Source: Escherichia phage BF17. From it: DNA of 64,000 nt. Shown here in pieces: positions 2,445 through 58,637 of the stretch. The stretch lies in the sequence record MW822008.1; one strand, given 5' to 3'. The translations under genes and the position numbers were made by a program. Below the pieces are notes generated by a model. That model searched no databases, was not told the origin of the DNA, and worked only from the letters and a program-made list of their open reading frames with translations. How positions within the stretch are numbered: position 1 is the stretch's first letter; each line of letters begins with the position of its first letter.

Positions 2445-2669
2445 ATGAAATATCTAGTACTAGTACTGCTATTCTTGAGTACTGTTGTATGTGCTAAACC
2501 AAAGTATCATGTAGTGTGTATCAACGAGATGGAAGGATATACTGAAACATATAAGAACCATATTGTTGAAGTTGCAGCCCAAGGTTCCTATGGGACCATC
2601 ATCTTCCTTAAGAACAATGTGATTGTTCAGTACAAAAAAGATTTAAATTGTAAAGTGACTAAAAAATGA
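2445..2669 (+). CDS. small secreted protein
   Basis: 74 aa; signal-peptide-like MKYLVLVLLFLSTVVCA. Confidence 0.55.
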   Translation: MKYLVLVLLFLSTVVCAKPKYHVVCINEMEGYTETYKNHIVEVAAQGSYGTIIFLKNNVIVQYKKDLNCKVTKK

Positions 2670-7606: not shown

Positions 7607-7639
7607 GGTTGACTTCGGTCGGCCCTTTTTGCTATAATC
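7607..7639 (+). terminator. hairpin terminator with embedded -35 and TATAAT
   Basis: GGGTTGACTTCGGTCGGCCC TTTTTGC TATAAT. Confidence 0.6.
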
Positions 7640-10902: not shown

Positions 10903-11154
10903 ATGAAAATTTTATTAGTTCTAATACTACTAATTGTTTTACCATTTACGTTAGTATCTCCTGAACTTGCATGGAATGTGTTTGTGTACTTACTATGTAC
11001 TATTGTAGTAAATGGTATCTTGTTCTTAGTTCTATTCATAAATGGAATAGGACACGGTGGAGGATGGACCAGTACTGCTGATATTGTACATAAAACCACT
11101 ATGTCTTTATTTGTAGTGTGGAATTTATTCTGGACTTGGTTTGTGTTCTTCTAA
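10903..11154 (+). CDS. small membrane protein
   Basis: 83 aa, hydrophobic throughout; GAGG upstream. Confidence 0.55.
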   Translation: MKILLVLILLIVLPFTLVSPELAWNVFVYLLCTIVVNGILFLVLFINGIGHGGGWTSTADIVHKTTMSLFVVWNLFWTWFVFF

Positions 11155-11164
11155 TTAAAAAAAT

Positions 11165-11536
11165 ATGAATATAGATTTGAAAGGTGCAACACGAACTGTC
11201 ATACTCATTGGGGAATATGCTATCAAGATTCCAACCTTTAAAAGTTGGAAGCTATTCTTAACAGGGATGATAGCTAACCTCAATGAACGTTCGTGGATGC
11301 AGTACTCCAAGCGTAGTAATAGTGGTATCTGCCCTACGTTGTGGTCATCATGTACTGGACTAGTAACTGTACAGAAACGTTGTAAGCCAGTGCAACATAG
11401 GGGTTTATTTTGGCTGGAGTTGTGTGCTTTAGCATTGAATTCAGAGTTAAGTGCTGACTTCTTTTATTCAGATGCGAAGCCAGAAAACTTTGGGTATCTG
11501 TGTGGTAAGTTGGTTAAACTTGATTATGGAGATTAA
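11165..11536 (+). CDS. hypothetical protein
   Basis: 123-aa ORF. Confidence 0.5.
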   Translation: MNIDLKGATRTVILIGEYAIKIPTFKSWKLFLTGMIANLNERSWMQYSKRSNSGICPTLWSSCTGLVTVQKRCKPVQHRGLFWLELCALALNSELSADFFYSDAKPENFGYLCGKLVKLDYGD

Positions 11537-11537
11537 T

Positions 11538-11810
11538 ATGTACGCACTGTATAATAAAGAAAAGAAACGATTTGCTAAGGTTGAAATTTCGATTGATACA
11601 TTTGACATGTTGGAGTACTGTATTGTAACGGACTTATATGCTAACTTGTATTACGTTCTTGATGACGTATCAGTACTGCAACGATTGCTTGAGAATTCCA
11701 AAAGTCAATGCCAGGGCATCCATGATGGTTCATCTTATGAAACACCTGAGTGTTCCTACGGCTATCTGGACGGGTATGAGATTGTGAAGTTGGGTATTGT
11801 TGGATGCTGA
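11538..11810 (+). CDS. hypothetical protein
   Basis: ORF 11451-11810 trimmed to ATG 11538 after GGAG. Confidence 0.5.
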   Translation: MYALYNKEKKRFAKVEISIDTFDMLEYCIVTDLYANLYYVLDDVSVLQRLLENSKSQCQGIHDGSSYETPECSYGYLDGYEIVKLGIVGC

Positions 11811-12084
11811 AACAATGACCAATGATGAATTCATGGAATTTATAAAAAATATACAAAGTTCAAAAACTGGAGAAGAAAAAGAAACATATAAATTTAAAAG
11901 TTCAATAATACTTATGAAAATGAAATTGATTTCTCATACTTTTAATGAGAAGTATGATTTTATCTTTGTGAACAGTGACTACAATGATTTAGTTTATAAT
12001 ATAAATGTTTTGTGGGAAGAAGAACTACAAAGCAAAATACATACAGTACGAAAACCATTAAAAAATCCTTTCAAAACGGGTTGA
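11797..12084 (+). CDS. hypothetical protein
   Basis: 95-aa ORF; ends in terminator hairpin. Confidence 0.5.
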   Translation: MLDAETMTNDEFMEFIKNIQSSKTGEEKETYKFKSSIILMKMKLISHTFNEKYDFIFVNSDYNDLVYNINVLWEEELQSKIHTVRKPLKNPFKTG

Positions 12085-12110
12085 CTTCGGTCAGCCCTTT
12101 TTGCTATAAT
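12078..12110 (+). terminator. hairpin terminator with embedded -35 and TATAAT
   Basis: GGGTTGACTTCGGTCAGCCC TTTTTGC TATAAT. Confidence 0.6.
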
Positions 12111-12138
12111 CATTTCATCAAGACGAGAGGATGAATAC

Positions 12139-12654
12139 ATGACACGCATTAACTTAGTACACGTTAAAGAACTTGCTGACCAACATCTGATGGCTGAATA
12201 TCGTGAACTCCCACGTGTGTTTGGTGCTGTACAAAAACATGTTCAAGCACGTAAGCGAGTCCGTGATTTCAAAATTAACAGTACTTACCTGTTAGGTTCA
12301 GGTCATGTAACATTCTTCTACAACAAGTTATTGTACTTACAGAAGCGTCATATTGATATTGTTAACGAATGTTTGCGTCGTGGTATGAAGATTCAAAACA
12401 CTGAAGTAAACGACATTAGCGGATTCCCTGCTGAGTTTTGTAATGACTACGTACCATCGGAGTCAGAGATTAAAATGTCTCGTGAGCGTTTGATTGAGAA
12501 GATACAGATGAAGCCTATGTGGTATAAATTTACTGACGTTGAACGCCCACAGTACGTTAAAGATATGCAGGACGTAAGTGGTGATATAGAATCTAGTACT
12601 GATATGTTCGACGAAATTGAAGAACAAATCAAAGATGAAATGAATAATTATTAA
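12139..12654 (+). CDS. denV: pyrimidine-dimer DNA glycosylase / AP lyase (T4 endonuclease V family)
   Basis: MTRINL...[19 protein letters not shown]...VRDFKI...GHVTFFY closely matches T4 endonuclease V as I recall it; ~35-aa acidic C-terminal extension. Confidence 0.88.
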
Positions 12655-12660
12655 AGGAAA

Positions 12661-12693
12661 GGGTTGACTTCGGTCAGCCCTTTTTGCTATAAT
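12661..12693 (+). terminator. hairpin terminator with embedded -35 and TATAAT
   Basis: same unit as 12078. Confidence 0.6.
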
Positions 12694-12719
12694 CATTTTA
12701 TCAACTTAAGAGGTAACAC

Positions 12720-12962
12720 ATGAAACTATCTTTTATACGATTAGCAGAATTCTTCGGTACTGATATCATTACTTTACAACAAATTGCAGACAATACTTCA
12801 TTAAGTACACAAGAAGTACTTGACTTAGATGTAATTCAGTGCGATAATACGTCCATCGATTACAAAGAAGGTCTTGTCGAAAAAGATAAGATTCAGGCTA
12901 AGATTAATGGTGCTGGACGGGTTCAGTACTGGAAAGGAGTTTTAAGTAATGTTAATTTATGA
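12720..12962 (+). CDS. hypothetical protein
   Basis: 80-aa ORF, AGAGG upstream. Confidence 0.5.
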   Translation: MKLSFIRLAEFFGTDIITLQQIADNTSLSTQEVLDLDVIQCDNTSIDYKEGLVEKDKIQAKINGAGRVQYWKGVLSNVNL

Positions 12963-14364
12963 CGAGCTTGGTGTTGGATACCATTTTACCGATGTTGTGC
13001 AATTGGAGGGTGAATATGTACGCGACGCACGAGAAGACACACCACTTGATAAAATAAAAACACTTAATTCACTAATAATAAAAAATATAATACACATTGA
13101 ATTATTACAAGGATTTGTCGTTGATGGCATAGATGAGTATAATAAAAAAAGATATTCTAAAAAATTTCGACAACCAAAATGTAATTTGAAAATAGCATTT
13201 TGGTATGATGGTTTATTGTTCATTCAAGGTTATAAACAATTTCTTTCCAACTTAAGTTCAGGAAACTATTGTCCGGGTGAAAAAATATATAATTTAGAAA
13301 AAACCATTTTATCTGCAAAAAATAAACTATCCGGTGGGTGTAGTATAATAACTGGGAATGGTGAGTGGCTGGGGAGAACAAATACTAAACTTTATGCACT
13401 CTGCACGAAAACCAATAAACCTTGGGAATTCACCATCGGTACACAATATTCTCAGAATTGTCCTGACTGTAAAAAAAGCAAAAAAACTAATAAAGACTTA
13501 GATGTGTTTTTTGAACAACAATGTATAAAATTAAATGCAAAATTTATTGGTATTTTCATGTATAATGGTGTAGATAATAGTATTGTCAAATCGGTATGTA
13601 ATTGTTGTGGTAATGAACGTATGGATTATGGAATAACGTTTCGTGCGGGCAGTAGAAAAAGTTTATGCCCACTTGAATCAAGCAGAGTAGAAAAAATAAA
13701 AAAATCCCAATACTTACAAAATGAAGTTTTGGAAGAAAAAATAAAAACTGCAATGAAAATCCATAATATAAGATTTGATGATTCTAACAAATTTGAACCT
13801 GAGAAATACGCAAATGTCAAAACTACTATTATAAATTATATTGATTCGAGTGGAACCCCTGGTAGTACATGTCTTTCAAATTTGATTTATAATACAGACA
13901 AACGAAGTATTGGTTCAAAAAACATGACTAATGGTGGTGAGTTGTATACAAATTCATTTGGAAATATGTACAAACTAGGTCACACGACAAAAACAAGTCG
14001 TAGGATATACGAACAAAATTTATCCTTCTCCAAAAAAAATATATTATGGAAAAATGAACTAATTTTAAAGTTTCCTGGTGAAAATGGGTATGGTCGAGCG
14101 ATTTATTTTGAAAAAACAATTTTAGATTATGTAAATAATATAATTGATTGGGTGAAAAACGTTCAAAAAACACCAATATTCGCCCGTGGTTGTGTTGACG
14201 AAGGTGATGGACATACTGAAACATTTTTAAAGATATATGAATCATATTTTAGATATAAATTGAATGAATTGTACTTGACATATAAAGATGAATGGGATAT
14301 AATTATTTTCAAAGATGAAAAGAATTTTATTTCTAATACAAGAGATACTAAAAATGACCAATGA
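12949..14364 (+). CDS. Cys-rich hypothetical protein in AT-rich insert
   Basis: 471 aa; Lys/Asn/Ile-rich; CPDCKK and CNCCGNE motifs. Confidence 0.6.
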   Translation: MLIYDELGVGYHFTDVVQLEGEYVRDAREDTPLDKIKTLNSLIIKNIIHIELLQGFVVDGIDEYNKKRYSKKFRQPKCNLKIAFWYDGLLFIQGYKQFLSNLSSGNYCPGEKIYNLEKTILSAKNKLSGGCSIITGNGEWLGRTNTKLYALCTKTNKPWEFTIGTQYSQNCPDCKKSKKTNKDLDVFFEQQCIKLNAKFIGIFMYNGVDNSIVKSVCNCCGNERMDYGITFRAGSRKSLCPLESSRVEKIKKSQYLQNEVLEEKIKTAMKIHNIRFDDSNKFEPEKYANVKTTIINYIDSSGTPGSTCLSNLIYNTDKRSIGSKNMTNGGELYTNSFGNMYKLGHTTKTSRRIYEQNLSFSKKNILWKNELILKFPGENGYGRAIYFEKTILDYVNNIIDWVKNVQKTPIFARGCVDEGDGHTETFLKIYESYFRYKLNELYLTYKDEWDIIIFKDEKNFISNTRDTKNDQ

Positions 14365-15412
14365 ACAAATTATTGATATTTTAAACAAACTTGGATATGA
14401 TGAAATAACAATTAATGTGGATAAATGTACATATGATGTATTTCATCCTAAAAGAAAAATAATTTATACTGGTATGGATTTAAATAAGATCAACTTTAAT
14501 ACAAAAGCAATAAAATTTCCACCGTTGGATTATAACACAATAAAATTAAGTTGTGAGAATATTTTCAAAGATAGTGAATGTAAATTTTGTTATTTGGAAT
14601 ATAATGAAAACAAACCAAATGACACAAAAGTTTTTTATTGTGCACCTAAAAGAAAAAAACCAACCAGTATATATTATAGACATTTGGTGAGTGGTGGTAT
14701 TCGTATTAATGTTGAATGGGATATTGAAGACATCTATGATAATGTCTTGATTAAAATAAAAGATATGGATGGTTTTGATATTGATCATGTTGAATATAAT
14801 GAAAAAGAAACTTCAAAAACTATAATTCATTTTAAACACCCAAATAGATTATTAACAGTTAAAAATGAATTTAGATATATAATGAGAGATAATTGGTCAT
14901 TAAAAGAACCGCAGATTTCATTAGACGAAATAAATGAGATTGGTAAGAAATTTTCAAAAGAACATCCAAAATATAAGTATCTTGGATGTAAAAGATTCAA
15001 AGGTTCAAAATCGATATTATCGTTTGTTAAAATCGATAATGGAAAAATTTGGAATCCATCATATGAATCAATAGTTTATAGTAATATTAACAGTGATGTT
15101 GGTGGATATATTGCAAATGATATAAAAAATTTATATATATTTAAAACTGATTCATTTGTTGGAACATTTATATGCAATGAAACAAAATTTAACTTTCATA
15201 AAAATGAAAGGGAGTTTTGGTTGGATGATGGGGAGATTGAGATAATTGGACAATTCAATGAACGATATTCTTTTTTAAAAGGTATTGTAGATACAGTTAA
15301 TAGTGAAATAGAAATAGATCATGATTTAGATATTGTTGGATATACGTGTATTAGGAAAATACATAATATTGAATATATACAACAACGTTGTTATGATTTA
15401 TTCAATTTATAA
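14354..15412 (+). CDS. hypothetical protein in AT-rich insert
   Basis: ORF 14315-15412 trimmed to ATG 14354; ~353 aa. Confidence 0.6.
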   Translation: MTNEQIIDILNKLGYDEITINVDKCTYDVFHPKRKIIYTGMDLNKINFNTKAIKFPPLDYNTIKLSCENIFKDSECKFCYLEYNENKPNDTKVFYCAPKRKKPTSIYYRHLVSGGIRINVEWDIEDIYDNVLIKIKDMDGFDIDHVEYNEKETSKTIIHFKHPNRLLTVKNEFRYIMRDNWSLKEPQISLDEINEIGKKFSKEHPKYKYLGCKRFKGSKSILSFVKIDNGKIWNPSYESIVYSNINSDVGGYIANDIKNLYIFKTDSFVGTFICNETKFNFHKNEREFWLDDGEIEIIGQFNERYSFLKGIVDTVNSEIEIDHDLDIVGYTCIRKIHNIEYIQQRCYDLFNL

Positions 15413-15420
15413 CAAAAAAA

Positions 15421-15453
15421 GGGTTGACTTCGGTCAGCCCTTTTTGCTATAAT
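15421..15453 (+). terminator. hairpin terminator with embedded -35 and TATAAT
   Basis: same unit as 12078. Confidence 0.6.
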
Positions 15454-15481
15454 TATTTCATCAACTGATGAGGATAACGAA

Positions 15482-16252
15482 ATGACCAGAGAAGCACGTA
15501 GCATTCAAATTCAGAAAAACTTCAACTCCATGATGGTTGCTCTTGAGTGTTTGCTCGACGATAACAGTACTGTAAAAAGTATGGTTGTCAGCGGTGCACC
15601 TGGTGTTGGTAAGACTTACACCCTGTCACAACGCCTCCAGAAAGCTCATGACGCAGCAGAATGGAACGTAGCCACTATCAGTGGTAAAATGACTACTCTT
15701 GCTCTGTACGAAGTTCTGTACAAGAATCGTCATAGCACCAACGTATTAGTACTGGATGATATGGACAGCATCTTTGATTCAGAAGACGGTATGAACCTGC
15801 TCAAAGCAGTACTGGACAGCGGTAAACGTACTGTGTCTTACATGACTAGCTCTAAGTACTTAACTACCAACGGTATCCCTAACAGCTTTGATTTTAACGG
15901 TCGTATCGTATTCATTACTAACAAAGATTTAGCACTGAATGCTAAAGCTAAAACCAAAATGTCTGCTCACTATGCTGCTCTTATGTCTCGCTCTGTGTAT
16001 GTTGACTTACAGATCCAGACTAAAAGCGATATCATGATTCACATTGAAAACGTAATGAACAAGACCAATATCCTGTCAACTAAAGGTGTTAATAGTAATG
16101 GTAGCAAAGCAATCCTGAATTGGATGCTGAAACATGAAGATGCACTTCGTGCTCCTTCACTGCGTATGCCTCTGTTGATTTCAGCAGTATACAACAACAA
16201 CCCGTATGATTGGGAAGAGCAGTGCGAAAACTTGTTCCTTGAGAAAATTTAA
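15482..16252 (+). CDS. P-loop NTPase
   Basis: Walker A GAPGVGKT and Walker B-like VLVLDDMD; GAGGA upstream. Confidence 0.7.
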   Translation: MTREARSIQIQKNFNSMMVALECLLDDNSTVKSMVVSGAPGVGKTYTLSQRLQKAHDAAEWNVATISGKMTTLALYEVLYKNRHSTNVLVLDDMDSIFDSEDGMNLLKAVLDSGKRTVSYMTSSKYLTTNGIPNSFDFNGRIVFITNKDLALNAKAKTKMSAHYAALMSRSVYVDLQIQTKSDIMIHIENVMNKTNILSTKGVNSNGSKAILNWMLKHEDALRAPSLRMPLLISAVYNNNPYDWEEQCENLFLEKI

Positions 16253-16267
16253 TTACATGTATTGACA

Positions 16268-16300
16268 GTACTACCATAGTGTAGTACTATAACTTAATAT
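16268..16300 (+). promoter_or_regulatory. sigma70-like promoter for the membrane-protein operon
   Basis: TTGACA, 17 nt, TACTAT upstream of 16320. Confidence 0.5.
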
Positions 16301-16319
16301 TCACCACCGGAGATACGAT

Positions 16320-16658
16320 ATGCTTGAGTTTTTTAATTCAGATACAATGCTTAGTATTACTTTGATTTATCTGTTTGGTTTTTTCTTTTATCATGCACTA
16401 GTTGTAGTACTATGGTATTTTAAAAAGAAAATCGTTTTCAAACTGTATCCTGATGGAAACATTTCACTACTTCTTTTCACTATTATCCAAGGTATGTTTG
16501 CAATTGTTGGTCTTATCGCACACTTAATTTATTGTGCTAATCCACAGTTGAACTCAATATCACAATATATTGTATTCCTTGGATTACTAATTTGGGTGCT
16601 GATATACTTGTTTAATCTCATCATCAATGGTAGAGCAAAAATTCGTGGGGACTTCTAA
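16320..16658 (+). CDS. small membrane protein, paralog family (cluster B)
   Basis: 112 aa, hydrophobic, basic C-terminal tail. Confidence 0.6.
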   Translation: MLEFFNSDTMLSITLIYLFGFFFYHALVVVLWYFKKKIVFKLYPDGNISLLLFTIIQGMFAIVGLIAHLIYCANPQLNSISQYIVFLGLLIWVLIYLFNLIINGRAKIRGDF

Positions 16659-17005
16659 TGTTTGAATCTTATCTTGAGTTTTTAAAGAGTAGTTCTGTTG
16701 CACATTCAATTGCAGGGATTATTCTAACAGGTTATGTAACATTTTGGGTGGTTATGTTTCTAGGATGGTATTTTAAACGACAATTCTATAAGCGTAATGG
16801 TGAAGATTTTATGAATTCTGTTATTAATCAATCGTTGTTTGCATCAACATTGATAGCATGTATTGTAGCAACACTCACAGGAAAGGTACTGCCAGCATTC
16901 TCCGCAGTTTACGGTACATTGGGTATGATATGTGTAGTTTTTTACTTGACCATTAAACTTTGTTGTGTTATGATTGACCTTCGAAACAAGATACCGGAGG
17001 AATGA
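16658..17005 (+). CDS. small membrane protein, paralog family (cluster B)
   Basis: 115 aa; tail LRNKIPEE; overlapping stop/start. Confidence 0.6.
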   Translation: MFESYLEFLKSSSVAHSIAGIILTGYVTFWVVMFLGWYFKRQFYKRNGEDFMNSVINQSLFASTLIACIVATLTGKVLPAFSAVYGTLGMICVVFYLTIKLCCVMIDLRNKIPEE

Positions 17006-17340
17006 TGGAATATTTTTTACACTTACTGCCGTGGTATATGAAAGTTAGTACTATGTACTATATTCTTAGTGCTGGATTCTACTTTCTGATGTGGTTCTTC
17101 AAACGACCAATTTCAGTATTCATCTCTGATAACATGCTGCAATTAAAATTACACGCATGGTTTTTTATGGCGATGTTTATGCCTATTATTCACTACTCAA
17201 TGATTAGTAGAGGGTTCCGTTCCAATGGTGAACCAATTATATTAGTATTCTATTGGGGTTCAACTATTGCATATGTAAGTTTGTTGTTGATCCCAGCCGT
17301 TCATAAATTACGTGCTAAAGTTCCTGATGCGAGGTACTAA
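17002..17340 (+). CDS. small membrane protein, paralog family (cluster B)
   Basis: 112 aa; tail LRAKVPDARY. Confidence 0.6.
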   Translation: MMEYFLHLLPWYMKVSTMYYILSAGFYFLMWFFKRPISVFISDNMLQLKLHAWFFMAMFMPIIHYSMISRGFRSNGEPIILVFYWGSTIAYVSLLLIPAVHKLRAKVPDARY

Positions 17341-17654
17341 TGGATATCGTAACATTGATTTACACGCTTTATTCATTCTATTTTATTATGTGTTGGGTTG
17401 GATTTTTATTTGTATTGAAGATGTTTGATTATGTTGAAAAACAGATAAAAGAATTTTGTATTCCTTTTATTGGGTCAACCATAATTAGTATTACTTGTTT
17501 GTATTATTTGGTATGTGATCCACCTGTTAATACAGCAATGATTGACTTCATGTTATTACCAACAACAGTTATTTTTTTATGTAGTCTGATGCCACCGATT
17601 AGTCGTGGGCTAACCGAATTTAGACGCAATCAAAAGCGTAAACGAGGGATGTGA
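17340..17654 (+). CDS. small membrane protein, paralog family (cluster B)
   Basis: 104 aa; basic tail. Confidence 0.6.
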   Translation: MDIVTLIYTLYSFYFIMCWVGFLFVLKMFDYVEKQIKEFCIPFIGSTIISITCLYYLVCDPPVNTAMIDFMLLPTTVIFLCSLMPPISRGLTEFRRNQKRKRGM

Positions 17655-18022
17655 TGGAAATTGCACTTATTATATTAACTGCTATGTTGTTTATTAGTAC
17701 AATTGTTATTATTGGCAAGTTCTTCTGTGTATCCTTCTTGGAAACCGTATACGATGAAATTGCTGATGATTATGAATTACATGCGGGATTTTTTACTACG
17801 TATTGGATTAGTTTATTACTACTTATCACTGTATGGATTTTACATATATTCAAATGGGGTATGGTAGATGGTGATCCAGTACTGGCAATTATCTGTGTAG
17901 TGTTTGGTCTACTCGGTGGTGCTGTCCATAATCTGATGGTAATTTGGCAAACCGTACAATATGTATTAGTTCCACATTTTCAGAGAATGCACCAAAGCAT
18001 CAAATACCGCAAACGAGGATAA
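17651..18022 (+). CDS. small membrane protein, paralog family (cluster B)
   Basis: 123 aa; basic tail. Confidence 0.6.
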   Translation: MMEIALIILTAMLFISTIVIIGKFFCVSFLETVYDEIADDYELHAGFFTTYWISLLLLITVWILHIFKWGMVDGDPVLAIICVVFGLLGGAVHNLMVIWQTVQYVLVPHFQRMHQSIKYRKRG

Positions 18023-18023
18023 C

Positions 18024-18386
18024 ATGAATAATATTGAATTATCTTTTATTGGTCAATTAATGGTAATGGCGTATACATTTATCTTCTCACTGAATGCATT
18101 CGTGTGCATTGGGAAGTACTTCCATAAGCGACCATTATCAAATATATATGATGTAATACAAAGGAGATATAGTCCAGCATATACTGTGTTGAGTACAGCA
18201 TTCAATTTTGGTTTTATTCTAATGCTGGTTGCATTATTAACATCGAGTTCGAATTTTATAACATTTGGTATTATGGTATGTTCACTAACACTGTGTGTGG
18301 TTATTCTCTGTGCATCAGTTGAGTTGATGGCGTGGATGTATAATAAGATTTCCGAAATCCATGAGCGTTTAGGTAAGAGGAACTAA
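18024..18386 (+). CDS. small membrane protein, paralog family (cluster B)
   Basis: 120 aa. Confidence 0.6.
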   Translation: MNNIELSFIGQLMVMAYTFIFSLNAFVCIGKYFHKRPLSNIYDVIQRRYSPAYTVLSTAFNFGFILMLVALLTSSSNFITFGIMVCSLTLCVVILCASVELMAWMYNKISEIHERLGKRN

Positions 18387-18387
18387 A

Positions 18388-18759
18388 ATGAGTTATCGTG
18401 AAATATTTTCGATCATTACTATTATTGTGTTTAGTTTAGGTTCTTTGATTTGGTTATTGTATTACTTCTGTGTAACCCCAGTATATAATATGCTAAATTC
18501 AGTTCGCTCTGATGTTGGTATTGTTTCTTTTATTATCTTCATGGCATATTATATGCTAAGTATCACAGGTTTGGTTTTGGTTGTTATCTTTGACCTTGGA
18601 CCGAATCAAGATGGTATGGAGATGTGGGAATTGATAACGATGTTTGCATGTATGATACCTGCATTTGGTGTATGTGCTGGTGTATTTTATGGGTTGTGTA
18701 AAGGTGTAAACTACTTAAAAAATATCCACAATACTATTCGTAAAAAACGTATGTTGTAA
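18388..18759 (+). CDS. small membrane protein, paralog family (cluster B)
   Basis: 123 aa; tail IRKKRML. Confidence 0.6.
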   Translation: MSYREIFSIITIIVFSLGSLIWLLYYFCVTPVYNMLNSVRSDVGIVSFIIFMAYYMLSITGLVLVVIFDLGPNQDGMEMWELITMFACMIPAFGVCAGVFYGLCKGVNYLKNIHNTIRKKRML

Positions 18760-18795: not shown

Positions 18796-19920
18796 TTAAT
18801 TATCTAAGCCACCAATTACACTGAACAGTGTGGTAACGTCTGAACTATTATCTATGTAAGTTCTTCTACCAACATAATATAGTTGTCCTTTTGCTTGAAT
18901 AAAAGTTACGGTCCCTGTATTGAATGTTATAATATCATTGTATGTAATGTCAGGTGGTAGTGCTGCTGATAACGCAGTAACTTTACTTAATGCAGCACTA
19001 GTACTACCATTTATACCAGCAGCAATACTACCAGTACCATAGAACTTATTATCTTTACCAATGAATACGTTGGCTGATGCTTGTGTAGCTGATGTTATTG
19101 CCTTACCAATTTGGAATGCGGTTCCTATGGTGTATGGTGTGCTCCTGGCTGCGTCTATGCTTTGTGTATATCCATCCCCTAGCTGACCATTAACTTTGTC
19201 ACCACATGAGTATAAAGTACCATTGAGGCTGTATATGATCCCACGGTTAGAGAAGCTAACAGCTTCTGCATTAGTCCATACTGGAGCGGTGTATGAGTTT
19301 ACACGACTAGCAGTAGTTCCTAGTCCTAGTATACCATATGTGTTATCACCACATCCAAACCATTGTCCAGTACTGTTTTGATAGAACACTGAACGTTCTG
19401 TTGATTCCATGCGTACAGCATCCACAGCACCACTTTTAACGAACGAAGTGGATGAGGATGTAGTACCAGTACCCAATGCACCATAAGTGTTTGTACCAAT
19501 CGCATAGATTGATCCTAGTGGTGTCATCACACGTATACAGTTATATCCCAATTGAACTTTACATTCAAATAGGTTGTCCCATATTTCAGGAACAGCAGAA
19601 AATAAATTTGTAATTTCGAACCATGATGTTGTCGAACCAATTAATCCTATACTGCTTTTGTTTCCTAAAATGAAAACAGTTTTGTCCTTCTTAATTATCC
19701 ATGATGATAGGAAACCTATCTCACAGCTATGAACATTTGATTCTATTTGGGTAATATAATACTTAACTGTGTTATCACCCATGAATGCCGCAGCACCGGA
19801 TGCAAAAAGGTTTCCAGTTTGTTTATTTAAAATGTAGTTATTGTTTCCATATACACTAACATCATAAGAACTTTCTTGTTTTTCGTTCCCATAATCAAAT
19901 AACAATACGAAAGGTAACAT
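18796..19920 (-). CDS. array member 1: RCC1-like repeat protein
   Basis: 374 aa; N-term MLPFVLLFDYGN; NGQLGDG and YGILGLG repeats; Gly/Thr/Ser/Asn-rich. Confidence 0.75.
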   Translation of the reverse strand: MLPFVLLFDYGNEKQESSYDVSVYGNNNYILNKQTGNLFASGAAAFMGDNTVKYYITQIESNVHSCEIGFLSSWIIKKDKTVFILGNKSSIGLIGSTTSWFEITNLFSAVPEIWDNLFECKVQLGYNCIRVMTPLGSIYAIGTNTYGALGTGTTSSSTSFVKSGAVDAVRMESTERSVFYQNSTGQWFGCGDNTYGILGLGTTASRVNSYTAPVWTNAEAVSFSNRGIIYSLNGTLYSCGDKVNGQLGDGYTQSIDAARSTPYTIGTAFQIGKAITSATQASANVFIGKDNKFYGTGSIAAGINGSTSAALSKVTALSAALPPDITYNDIITFNTGTVTFIQAKGQLYYVGRRTYIDNSSDVTTLFSVIGGLDN

Positions 19921-58542: not shown

Positions 58543-58637
58543 TAGAATCCATTTAAAGTACTATTTGACATTGCCCAGATAGTACTTTATAATAGACTCT
58601 AACTTGTAGTACTAACTCAACTAATAGGATGTATACC

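Follow-up and report, generated by a model that had tools for sequence, protein, structure and literature searches.

The 64,000-nucleotide stretch of Escherichia phage BF17 analysed here (sequence record MW822008.1, hereafter the window) carries, between denV and the gene of a conserved P-loop ATPase, a very AT-rich insert of 2.46 kb with two open reading frames (ORFs), ORF471 and ORF352. The insert is probably a selfish cassette of the homing-endonuclease type, lodged in a hot spot for such genes. This reading, drawn from sequence comparison, combines the anatomy of the segment, the polymorphism of the site, the remote homology of the encoded proteins and the recent spread of the insert, from which we infer a nuclease activity for ORF471, a target site and a role for ORF352. 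The window is that of an Asteriusvirus jumbo coliphage of the BF17/Turkey3 type: it is closest to Escherichia phage Turkey3, BF17 is given as Asteriusvirus in PMC13070987, and a megablast search with positions 11000-17500 returned 58 phage records, mostly jumbo coliphages of Asteriusvirus (121Q, PBECO4 and relatives). The features of the insert are as follows.

12950..15413, plus strand: AT-rich variable insert, delimited by blastn break points, GC content and zero substitutions; right edge ambiguous by 2-3 bases (A-run)
12949..14364, plus strand: ORF471, putative divergent homing-endonuclease-like protein, 471 amino acids (aa)
13387..13671, plus strand: ORF471 aa 147-241, two degenerate zinc-ribbon-like motifs placed by Cys positions (C152...C171-P-D-C174; C217-N-C219-C220...C240)
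13951..14304, plus strand: ORF471 aa 335-452, predicted C-terminal T5orf172-like (GIY-YIG superfamily) nuclease-type domain, from a domain hidden Markov model (HMM) and hhalign
14275..14303, plus strand: predicted sigma-70 consensus promoter (TTGACA, 17 nt, TATAAT; 12/12 matches), inside the 3' end of ORF471
14354..15412, plus strand: ORF352, protein with ~64-aa repeat modules as in homing endonucleases; an alternative ATG at 14315 gives 365 aa
14519..15139, plus strand: ORF352 aa 56-262, significant similarity to Turkey5 modules (three-module HMM, 15.3 and 27.2 bits)

Blastn similarity of the window to eight relatives stops at 12949-12953 and returns at 15410-15418; the initial annotation, which had placed a two-gene AT-rich insert beside denV at 12949-15412, had thus captured the true variable segment nearly to the base. 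Its reading frames also lie where they had been put, ORF471 at 12949-14364 and the second one starting either at 14315 (365 aa) or at 14354 (352 aa), the latter start being used by the Turkey3 annotation and by metagenome gene calls. The left edge of the insert coincides with the ATG of ORF471 and falls within the final codons of a conserved gene of 80 aa, the 3' end of which provides ORF471 with its ribosome-binding site AAGGAG (12934-12939) and the A of its ATG. By altering these last codons the insert rewrites the C-terminus of its neighbour. The right edge adjoins copy 3 of a ~60-bp terminator/promoter repeat.

The suspected AT-richness relative to the neighbouring DNA was confirmed by computing local GC content, which for 12952-15412 is 0.272 compared with 0.364 +/- 0.020 (minimum 0.322) in all other 2461-bp windows of the 64 kb (z = -4.66). 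The GC content at third codon positions (GC3) is 0.21 in ORF471 and 0.15 in ORF352, and 0.36 and 0.44 in denV and the ATPase gene, respectively. The Lys/Asn/Ile richness that had been pointed out holds as well: these residues account for 28.5% of ORF471 and 32.4% of ORF352, whereas they make up 19.7 +/- 3.7% of the remaining 31 long ORFs of the window. Since other nuclease genes found at this locus in related phages are likewise AT-rich (GC 0.29-0.35, GC3 0.15-0.26), low GC is a trait of this class of genes in these phages rather than a peculiarity of the insert, with ORF352 as the extreme case. A search of the insert for RNA families, tRNAs and meaningful tandem repeats yielded none.

Comparison of presence and absence, which had been proposed as a check, showed the insert to be variable: it occurs in only one of the 58 related phage records, that of Turkey3, and both empty and otherwise occupied alleles exist. 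Such variable presence at a precise site, with empty alleles, is what is looked for in homing endonuclease genes. In EC.P1 and fEgEco12 the slot is empty and the whole cassette is missing, so that denV is followed directly by the ATPase gene with one repeat between them; in EC.P1 this single repeat is chimeric, having the left context of copy 2 and the right context of copy 3. Salmonella phage SD-15_S21 has the 80-aa gene with no occupant and the ATPase gene next. The junction at this precise empty site (locus L031, 1563-1858) reads AAGTAA/AAAAAGGG, or in its longer form AAGGAGTTTTAAGTAA/AAAAAGGGTTGAC, and the 80-aa gene of SD-15_S21, lacking an occupant, runs into the terminator hairpin and is extended to 88 aa.

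The occupied alleles are diverse. In JP4, vB_Ec-M-J and G17 the 80-aa gene is accompanied by a gene for a ~372-aa phrog_559 protein; no significant similarity was found between the insert proteins and the phrog_559 proteins of JP4 and vB_Ec-M-J. In PBECO4 (379 aa), 121Q (487 aa, with Pfam CapR repeats) and phAPEC6 (628 aa) it is followed by a phrog_681 "endonuclease", and other DUF4379/phrog_681 proteins are encoded between denV and the ATPase gene in WPEC3, CMSTMSU, Turkey5 and Turkey3, in the last case on the upstream side of the insert. One start codon is shared by no fewer than five different nuclease genes, which use the ribosome-binding site of the 80-aa gene. The insert itself is known in 12 copies (the window and eleven contigs, Turkey3 among them), all in the same context, and no second insertion site was found among them.

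Two further arrangements were noted at this slot. Turkey3 harbours an extra cassette, without counterpart in the window, which consists of a 46-aa ORF and a gene for a 432-aa DUF4379/phrog_681 protein and lies between denV and the 80-aa gene (locus L001, 488-1995); nuclease-type genes thus stand in tandem in this phage, each cassette with its own terminator/promoter repeat. In WPEC5 (locus L022, 1912-3411) the nuclease gene is split over three frames, with the modules in different frames and the C-terminal domain intact; the copy may be decaying, or its repeats may have been misassembled.

The spread of the insert was assessed by setting the window against Turkey3 and two metagenome contigs from ENA (one of them locus L012). 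The insert shows zero substitutions relative to all three. No substitutions occur from 12897 to 15481, and 11-14 are found within the ~200 bp of 12694-12896, in the region of the 80-aa gene. To the right, the identical tract continues to 16624 in Turkey3, beyond which the divergence is ~1.5%, and ends before 15733 in L012. Backgrounds that differ by 1.5-4.6% in the flanks share the same insert base for base. With flanks diverged to this extent, zero changes in 2.46 kb are not plausible unless the insert was recently transferred together with some flanking DNA. Recent horizontal spread accompanied by flanking DNA is a further property sought in homing endonuclease genes, and the tract of identity is the footprint expected of homing. 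Hence, of the proposal that the segment is a recently acquired accessory module, the acquired, variable and recent character stands (one of 58 records, zero substitutions), while a selfish cassette of the homing-endonuclease type describes the insert better than an accessory module does.

Both proteins have virtually no database relatives. ORF471 retrieved only identical copies from 5.8 billion protein clusters and from a full HMMER search of 1.84 billion representatives, ORF352 only identical copies from the same 5.8 billion clusters, and tblastn of the two against 50,697 phage records found Turkey3 only. Both were therefore best approached through the genes that sister phages have at this slot. 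BLASTP aligned aa 203-440 of ORF471 with aa 128-351 of PBECO4 gp306 (30 bits, pairwise E = 1e-4, ~26% identity over 260 aa). The alignment spans the zinc ribbon of gp306, one DUF4379-type module and the C-terminal domain. The motifs reported in the initial annotation are present in ORF471, CPDCKK at aa 171 and CNCCGNE at aa 217, and the second Cys motif aligns with the CNDCG...CQEC ribbon of gp306. A by-eye likeness of the N-terminus of ORF471 to the N-terminus shared by JP4 and PBECO4 was rejected (2.2 bits).

An HMM built from the C-terminal domains of the PBECO4, 121Q, WPEC5 and Turkey5 proteins matched aa 335-452 of ORF471 with 20.7 bits (E = 4.5e-6), a score reached by none of 3000 composition-matched shuffles (maximum 9.3), and of the 266 six-frame ORFs of the window only two matched below E = 0.01, with ORF471 ranking first. 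Profile-profile alignment (hhalign) of the ORF471 C-terminus with the same domain gave Prob 89.5% and P = 1.9e-6 over 117 columns. All 16 invariant columns of the five-sequence domain alignment are kept in ORF471, including the R of "SRRI", the N of "EQN", the E of "FEK" and GDGxTET. The other match of this HMM, a 74-aa ORF at 2445-2669 (plus strand) with a signal-peptide-like N-terminus, rests on a short GYTETY motif (12.7 bits, E = 0.0013) and is probably due to chance.

A second subtype of the C-terminal domain is found in the Turkey3 DUF4379 protein, WPEC3, phAPEC6 and GAP32-like and CBB-like contigs, and both subtypes map to the C-terminus of phrog_681. After enlargement of the second subtype with phi92 gp222, RB49 ORF239c, ICP1 ORF130 and others, hhalign connected it to the PBECO4-type domain with Prob 92.4% and P = 5.3e-7. 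By tblastn the second subtype is 39-40% identical to ICP1 ORF130 (E = 8e-16). Barth, Dunham and Seed (2023, PMC10448857) took ICP1 Gp130 to represent the T5orf172 homing endonucleases. The same paper describes T5orf172 as a GIY-YIG subfamily and the family as having repeated CapR/DUF723/DUF4379 DNA-binding domains, variable presence and frameshifted copies. A large protein search with the WPEC3 C-terminal domain gave no matches, and pattern scans for family members recovered 3 and 1 loci in two scans of viral contigs and none in a metagenome scan. Because ORF471 shares its C-terminal domain with the slot genes of sister phages and this domain is in turn linked to ICP1 Gp130, it was concluded that ORF471, a putative nuclease, is probably a very divergent, fast-evolving member of the T5orf172 family (GIY-YIG superfamily), with profile-level homology, by transitive steps, to accepted members. 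The initial suggestion of "possibly a nuclease" therefore survives in the form of a remote yet significant homology of ORF471 to a T5orf172-type domain (E = 1e-4, 20.7 bits, P = 1.9e-6), although curated nuclease models remain unmatched.

ORF352 is related to another part of such proteins. BLASTP aligned it with a 527-aa Turkey5 protein in two segments (43.5 bits, E = 5e-9 each), both on the N-terminal ~64-aa repeats of the latter. These repeats carry the motif I-x-[FY]-x-H-P-x-R, and [HA]PxR occurs in ORF352 at aa 31, 97 and 162. An HMM of three Turkey5 modules scored 43.3 bits (E = 4e-13) on the whole of ORF352, its sole match below E = 0.1 among the 266 ORFs. Compared with canonical CapR/DUF4379-type modules, the ORF352 modules align in the correct register (hhalign, P = 0.002), which is suggestive only, and an HMM of the canonical modules gave 1-6 bits on ORF471 and ORF352. 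The CapR zinc finger (CxxC...CxC) was not found in ORF352, which has no Pfam CapR match and no conservation of Cys across its modules. A by-eye likeness of the ORF352 C-terminus to a degenerate nuclease domain was also rejected, the HMM scores of aa 246-352 being no better than those of shuffles. ORF352 thus has endonuclease-type modules and lacks the nuclease domain. The sigma-70 consensus promoter lies 51 nt upstream of its ATG; exact TTGACA-17 nt-TATAAT sites number 2 in the 64 kb, where 0.05 would be expected, the other being at 58565-58593 (plus strand). In view of the matches to Turkey5 modules, the C-terminus devoid of nuclease similarity and a promoter of its own, ORF352 would therefore be a repeat-module protein without detectable nuclease domain, separately transcribed from the predicted promoter.

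In the case of a homing-endonuclease-type cassette, the following events may be envisaged. ORF471 would be translated from the ribosome-binding site and the start-codon A contributed by the 3' end of the 80-aa gene, and in a mixed infection would cut the insert-less allele near the junction of the 80-aa and ATPase genes; repair by recombination would then transfer the insert, with DNA from its flanks, to the genome that was cut. Recombination between the bracketing ~60-bp repeats may also remove or add the cassette as a whole. ORF352 may derive from the same kind of element, either as a remnant of an older endonuclease gene or as a nuclease-free DNA-binding derivative, as CapR is (PMC10448857).

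Several observations weigh against this reading. The curated collections (Pfam, PHROGs, PADLOC and a PDB search) gave no match to ORF471 or ORF352 even at E = 10. More specifically, no Pfam match at E = 10, including those to T5orf172, MUG113 and GIY-YIG models, was obtained with ORF471 or its C-terminal 144 aa, nothing relevant to ORF471 was found in PHROGs, a PDB profile search gave no GIY-YIG match, neither protein matched HNH, LAGLIDADG or PD-(D/E)XK families in Pfam or PHROGs, and ORF471 had no Pfam CapR or DUF4379 match and only 1.3-3.5 bits with the HMM of canonical modules. The CxxC-type motifs of ORF471 have incomplete ligand sets. AlphaFold2 single-sequence models of ORF471 and ORF352 reached a predicted local distance difference test (pLDDT) score of 30.3 and 33.8, with no usable fold. 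The link between ORF471 and T5orf172 is transitive and passes through two profile steps, and within the second subtype only three of six members match Pfam T5orf172/MUG113 directly, below the curated cut-off. In addition, the identical tract is asymmetric, with ~50 bp to the left of the insert and 0.3-1.2 kb to the right, and ordinary recombination at shared flanks could leave the same footprint without an active nuclease.

Some of these points lend themselves to another explanation, namely that the cassette originated from homing endonuclease genes of which both products are now inactive, decaying relics moved passively by recombination between conserved flanks, with the 80-aa gene serving on the left and the terminator/promoter repeat plus the ATPase gene on the right. 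The extreme divergence with no curated matches, the incomplete zinc-ribbon ligands of ORF471 and the missing nuclease domain of ORF352 would all fit such a state, as would the decay seen at this site in WPEC5, and the bracketing repeats offer a route of gain and loss independent of any nuclease. This explanation nevertheless seems rather unlikely. Both ORFs (471 and 352 codons) are long and intact at 24-29% GC, and to judge from base composition, two intact ORFs of this length are very unlikely to arise by chance. Moreover, ORF471 keeps all 16 positions that do not vary in the five-sequence alignment of its domain, the cassette still has a perfect promoter and a good ribosome-binding site, and the insert is the same in three or more diverged backgrounds, which speaks for efficient recent spread and against slow decay.

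It is also conceivable, with a still smaller probability, that the genes have been domesticated, with ORF352 (possibly ORF471 too) serving as a sequence-specific DNA-binding regulator or interference factor, or ORF352 as a specificity or immunity subunit for ORF471. ORF352 is made up of modules alone and is preceded by a perfect sigma-70 promoter, such DNA-binding repeats, like nuclease domains, are documented to have been domesticated (PMC10448857), and the two genes occur together in all 12 known contexts. However, no target, satellite or regulated gene could be identified, the modules resemble canonical CapR/DUF4379 zinc fingers only weakly (P = 0.002) and lack the Cys ligands, and the rarity of the insert (1 of 58 relatives) is more in keeping with a selfish element than with a beneficial function. 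A further reading appears similarly doubtful: ORF471 and ORF352 might form a two-component homing system, with ORF352 as the specificity, immunity or regulatory partner, or ORF352 might act as a CapR-like repressor between co-infecting jumbo phages, instead of being a dead remnant.

The selfish homing-endonuclease-type cassette, which is the reading preferred here, is embedded in the following genes and repeats.

12073..12143, plus strand: terminator/promoter repeat copy 1, upstream of denV, from the repeat family search
12139..12654, plus strand: denV (endonuclease V, pyrimidine-dimer glycosylase), conserved left neighbour outside the insert; Pfam Pyr_excise E = 9e-15, phrog_1183 E = 1e-58
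12656..12726, plus strand: terminator/promoter repeat copy 2, left end of the 2760-bp repeat-bounded cassette missing from EC.P1 and fEgEco12
12720..12962, plus strand: conserved 80-aa gene, phrog_34150 (E = 1e-54)
15416..15486, plus strand: terminator/promoter repeat copy 3, which ends the cassette and bears the promoter of the ATPase gene
15482..16252, plus strand: P-loop (AAA/STAND-like) ATPase, phrog_1250 (E = 7e-103), conserved backbone gene

The identification of denV beside the insert and of a P-loop ATPase after it was thus correct in the initial annotation; the P-loop NTPase itself does not belong to the module. All relatives examined have kept the ATPase gene whether or not they carry the insert, even those where the site is empty. 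The gene is therefore part of the backbone and outside the insert; it also has its own promoter/terminator unit. An accessory defence or anti-defence module acting with this P-loop NTPase, to which the foreign base composition and the adjacent AAA/STAND-like ATPase, with its weak P-loop matches of nSTAND and GajB-like type, might point, is highly improbable, given that the ATPase gene is conserved irrespective of the insert and has a promoter/terminator unit of its own, that PADLOC found nothing in ORF471, ORF352 or the 80-aa protein, and that both ORFs have detectable homology to homing endonuclease genes; the proposed anti-defence function is accordingly disfavoured.

The 80-aa protein is 94-99% identical in JP4, vB_Ec-M-J and phAPEC6. 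The ~60-bp terminator/promoter repeat consists of the GGGTTGACTTCGGTCAGCCC hairpin, T5 and then TGCTATAAT. Its hairpin folds at -19 kcal/mol (z = -5.9), and its promoter comprises TTGACT, 18 nt and TATAAT with a TG extension. Copies 2 and 3 (12656 and 15416) are 2760 bp apart and bracket the 80-aa gene together with the insert. The window has 5 occurrences of the 30-nt core of the repeat, where 0 would be expected. Two more copies are located at 972-1001 and 7609-7638 (plus strand; 3 and 1 mismatches to the core), and the repeat seems to be used generally between the early genes of this region.

A second variable slot is found just upstream of denV, where the window has a 95-aa ORF at 11797-12084 (plus strand, GC 0.257). 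The same slot holds a 137-aa "HNH endonuclease" in WPEC3, JP4, EC.P1 and fEgEco12, and CMSTMSU has the version of the window. The ATPase gene is followed at 16320-18759 (plus strand) by seven tightly packed genes for small hydrophobic proteins (104-123 aa); JP4 and G17 have one extra gene in this run, which suggests variation in copy number. A 374-aa gene at 18796-19920 on the minus strand marks the end of the plus-strand early block; in Turkey3 and fEgEco12 the corresponding genes bear the annotations HERC1-like and chromosome condensation regulator (RCC1-like repeats).

Taken as a whole, the insert would represent an ordinary kind of phage element, with a putative nuclease, in an unusually divergent form, and it opens no long-standing question. 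A block that looked orphan and compositionally foreign becomes, in this interpretation, one more occupant of a homing-endonuclease hot spot, and its suggested link to the P-loop NTPase is removed. The case also illustrates how rapidly such genes diverge: two intact genes that match only identical copies among about 15 billion proteins could still be placed by means of the slot genes of sister phages. Furthermore, the locus provides a compact natural series for the turnover of nuclease genes in jumbo phages, which runs from the empty site and the 80-aa gene on its own to five or more nuclease genes and a frameshifted copy.

Among known systems, the T5orf172 homing endonuclease genes (ICP1 Gp53, Gp121 and Gp130, PMC10448857; phrog_681 in PHROGs) come close to the insert in architecture. 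Their proteins have "beads-on-a-string" DNA-binding modules, a layout that ORF471 with its degenerate zinc-ribbon-like motifs may share, followed by a C-terminal nuclease-type domain, which shows profile-level homology to aa 335-452 of ORF471. They share with the insert locus the variable presence at a precise site, the occurrence of several unrelated nuclease genes and the decayed copies nearby. Unlike them, ORF471 has no Pfam T5orf172, CapR or DUF4379 match, its zinc ligands are incomplete and it finds only itself among 1.84 billion representatives, and the insert has denV and the ATPase gene as neighbours, whereas terminase, ribonucleotide reductase and capsid genes are stressed in PMC10448857.

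Close counterparts are also PBECO4 gp306, 121Q gp221 and the Turkey5 DUF4379 protein (527 aa), whose genes have the same insertion point, upstream ribosome-binding site and C-terminal domain family as ORF471 and are AT-rich like the insert (GC 0.29-0.34). The N-terminal ~64-aa modules of the Turkey5 protein are the only relatives of ORF352. In Turkey5, however, modules and nuclease domain are united in one protein, while in BF17 Turkey5-like modules are encoded by a separate downstream gene with no nuclease domain. In this respect ORF352 is reminiscent of CapR, a nuclease-free derivative, as it likewise keeps only endonuclease-type modules and is expressed separately, if the predicted promoter is used; in contrast to CapR, it has neither the CxxC...CxC zinc finger nor a CapR Pfam match, and it is encoded by a phage beside a putative nuclease and not in a satellite. 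Finally, the PeSL cassettes of T4-like phages (Arbiol et al. 2010, PMC2839356; Comeau et al. 2014, PMC4122927) have in common with this region a repeated terminator hairpin with an early-type promoter between genes, repeats that bracket a segment which is present or absent, and an empty allele with a single chimeric copy. The differences are the Asteriusvirus lineage, the position of the -35 box inside the hairpin stem and the left edge of the insert, which lies at a start codon and not at a repeat. The PeSL pattern is thus displayed by the whole cassette, the 80-aa gene included, but not by the left edge of the AT-rich insert.

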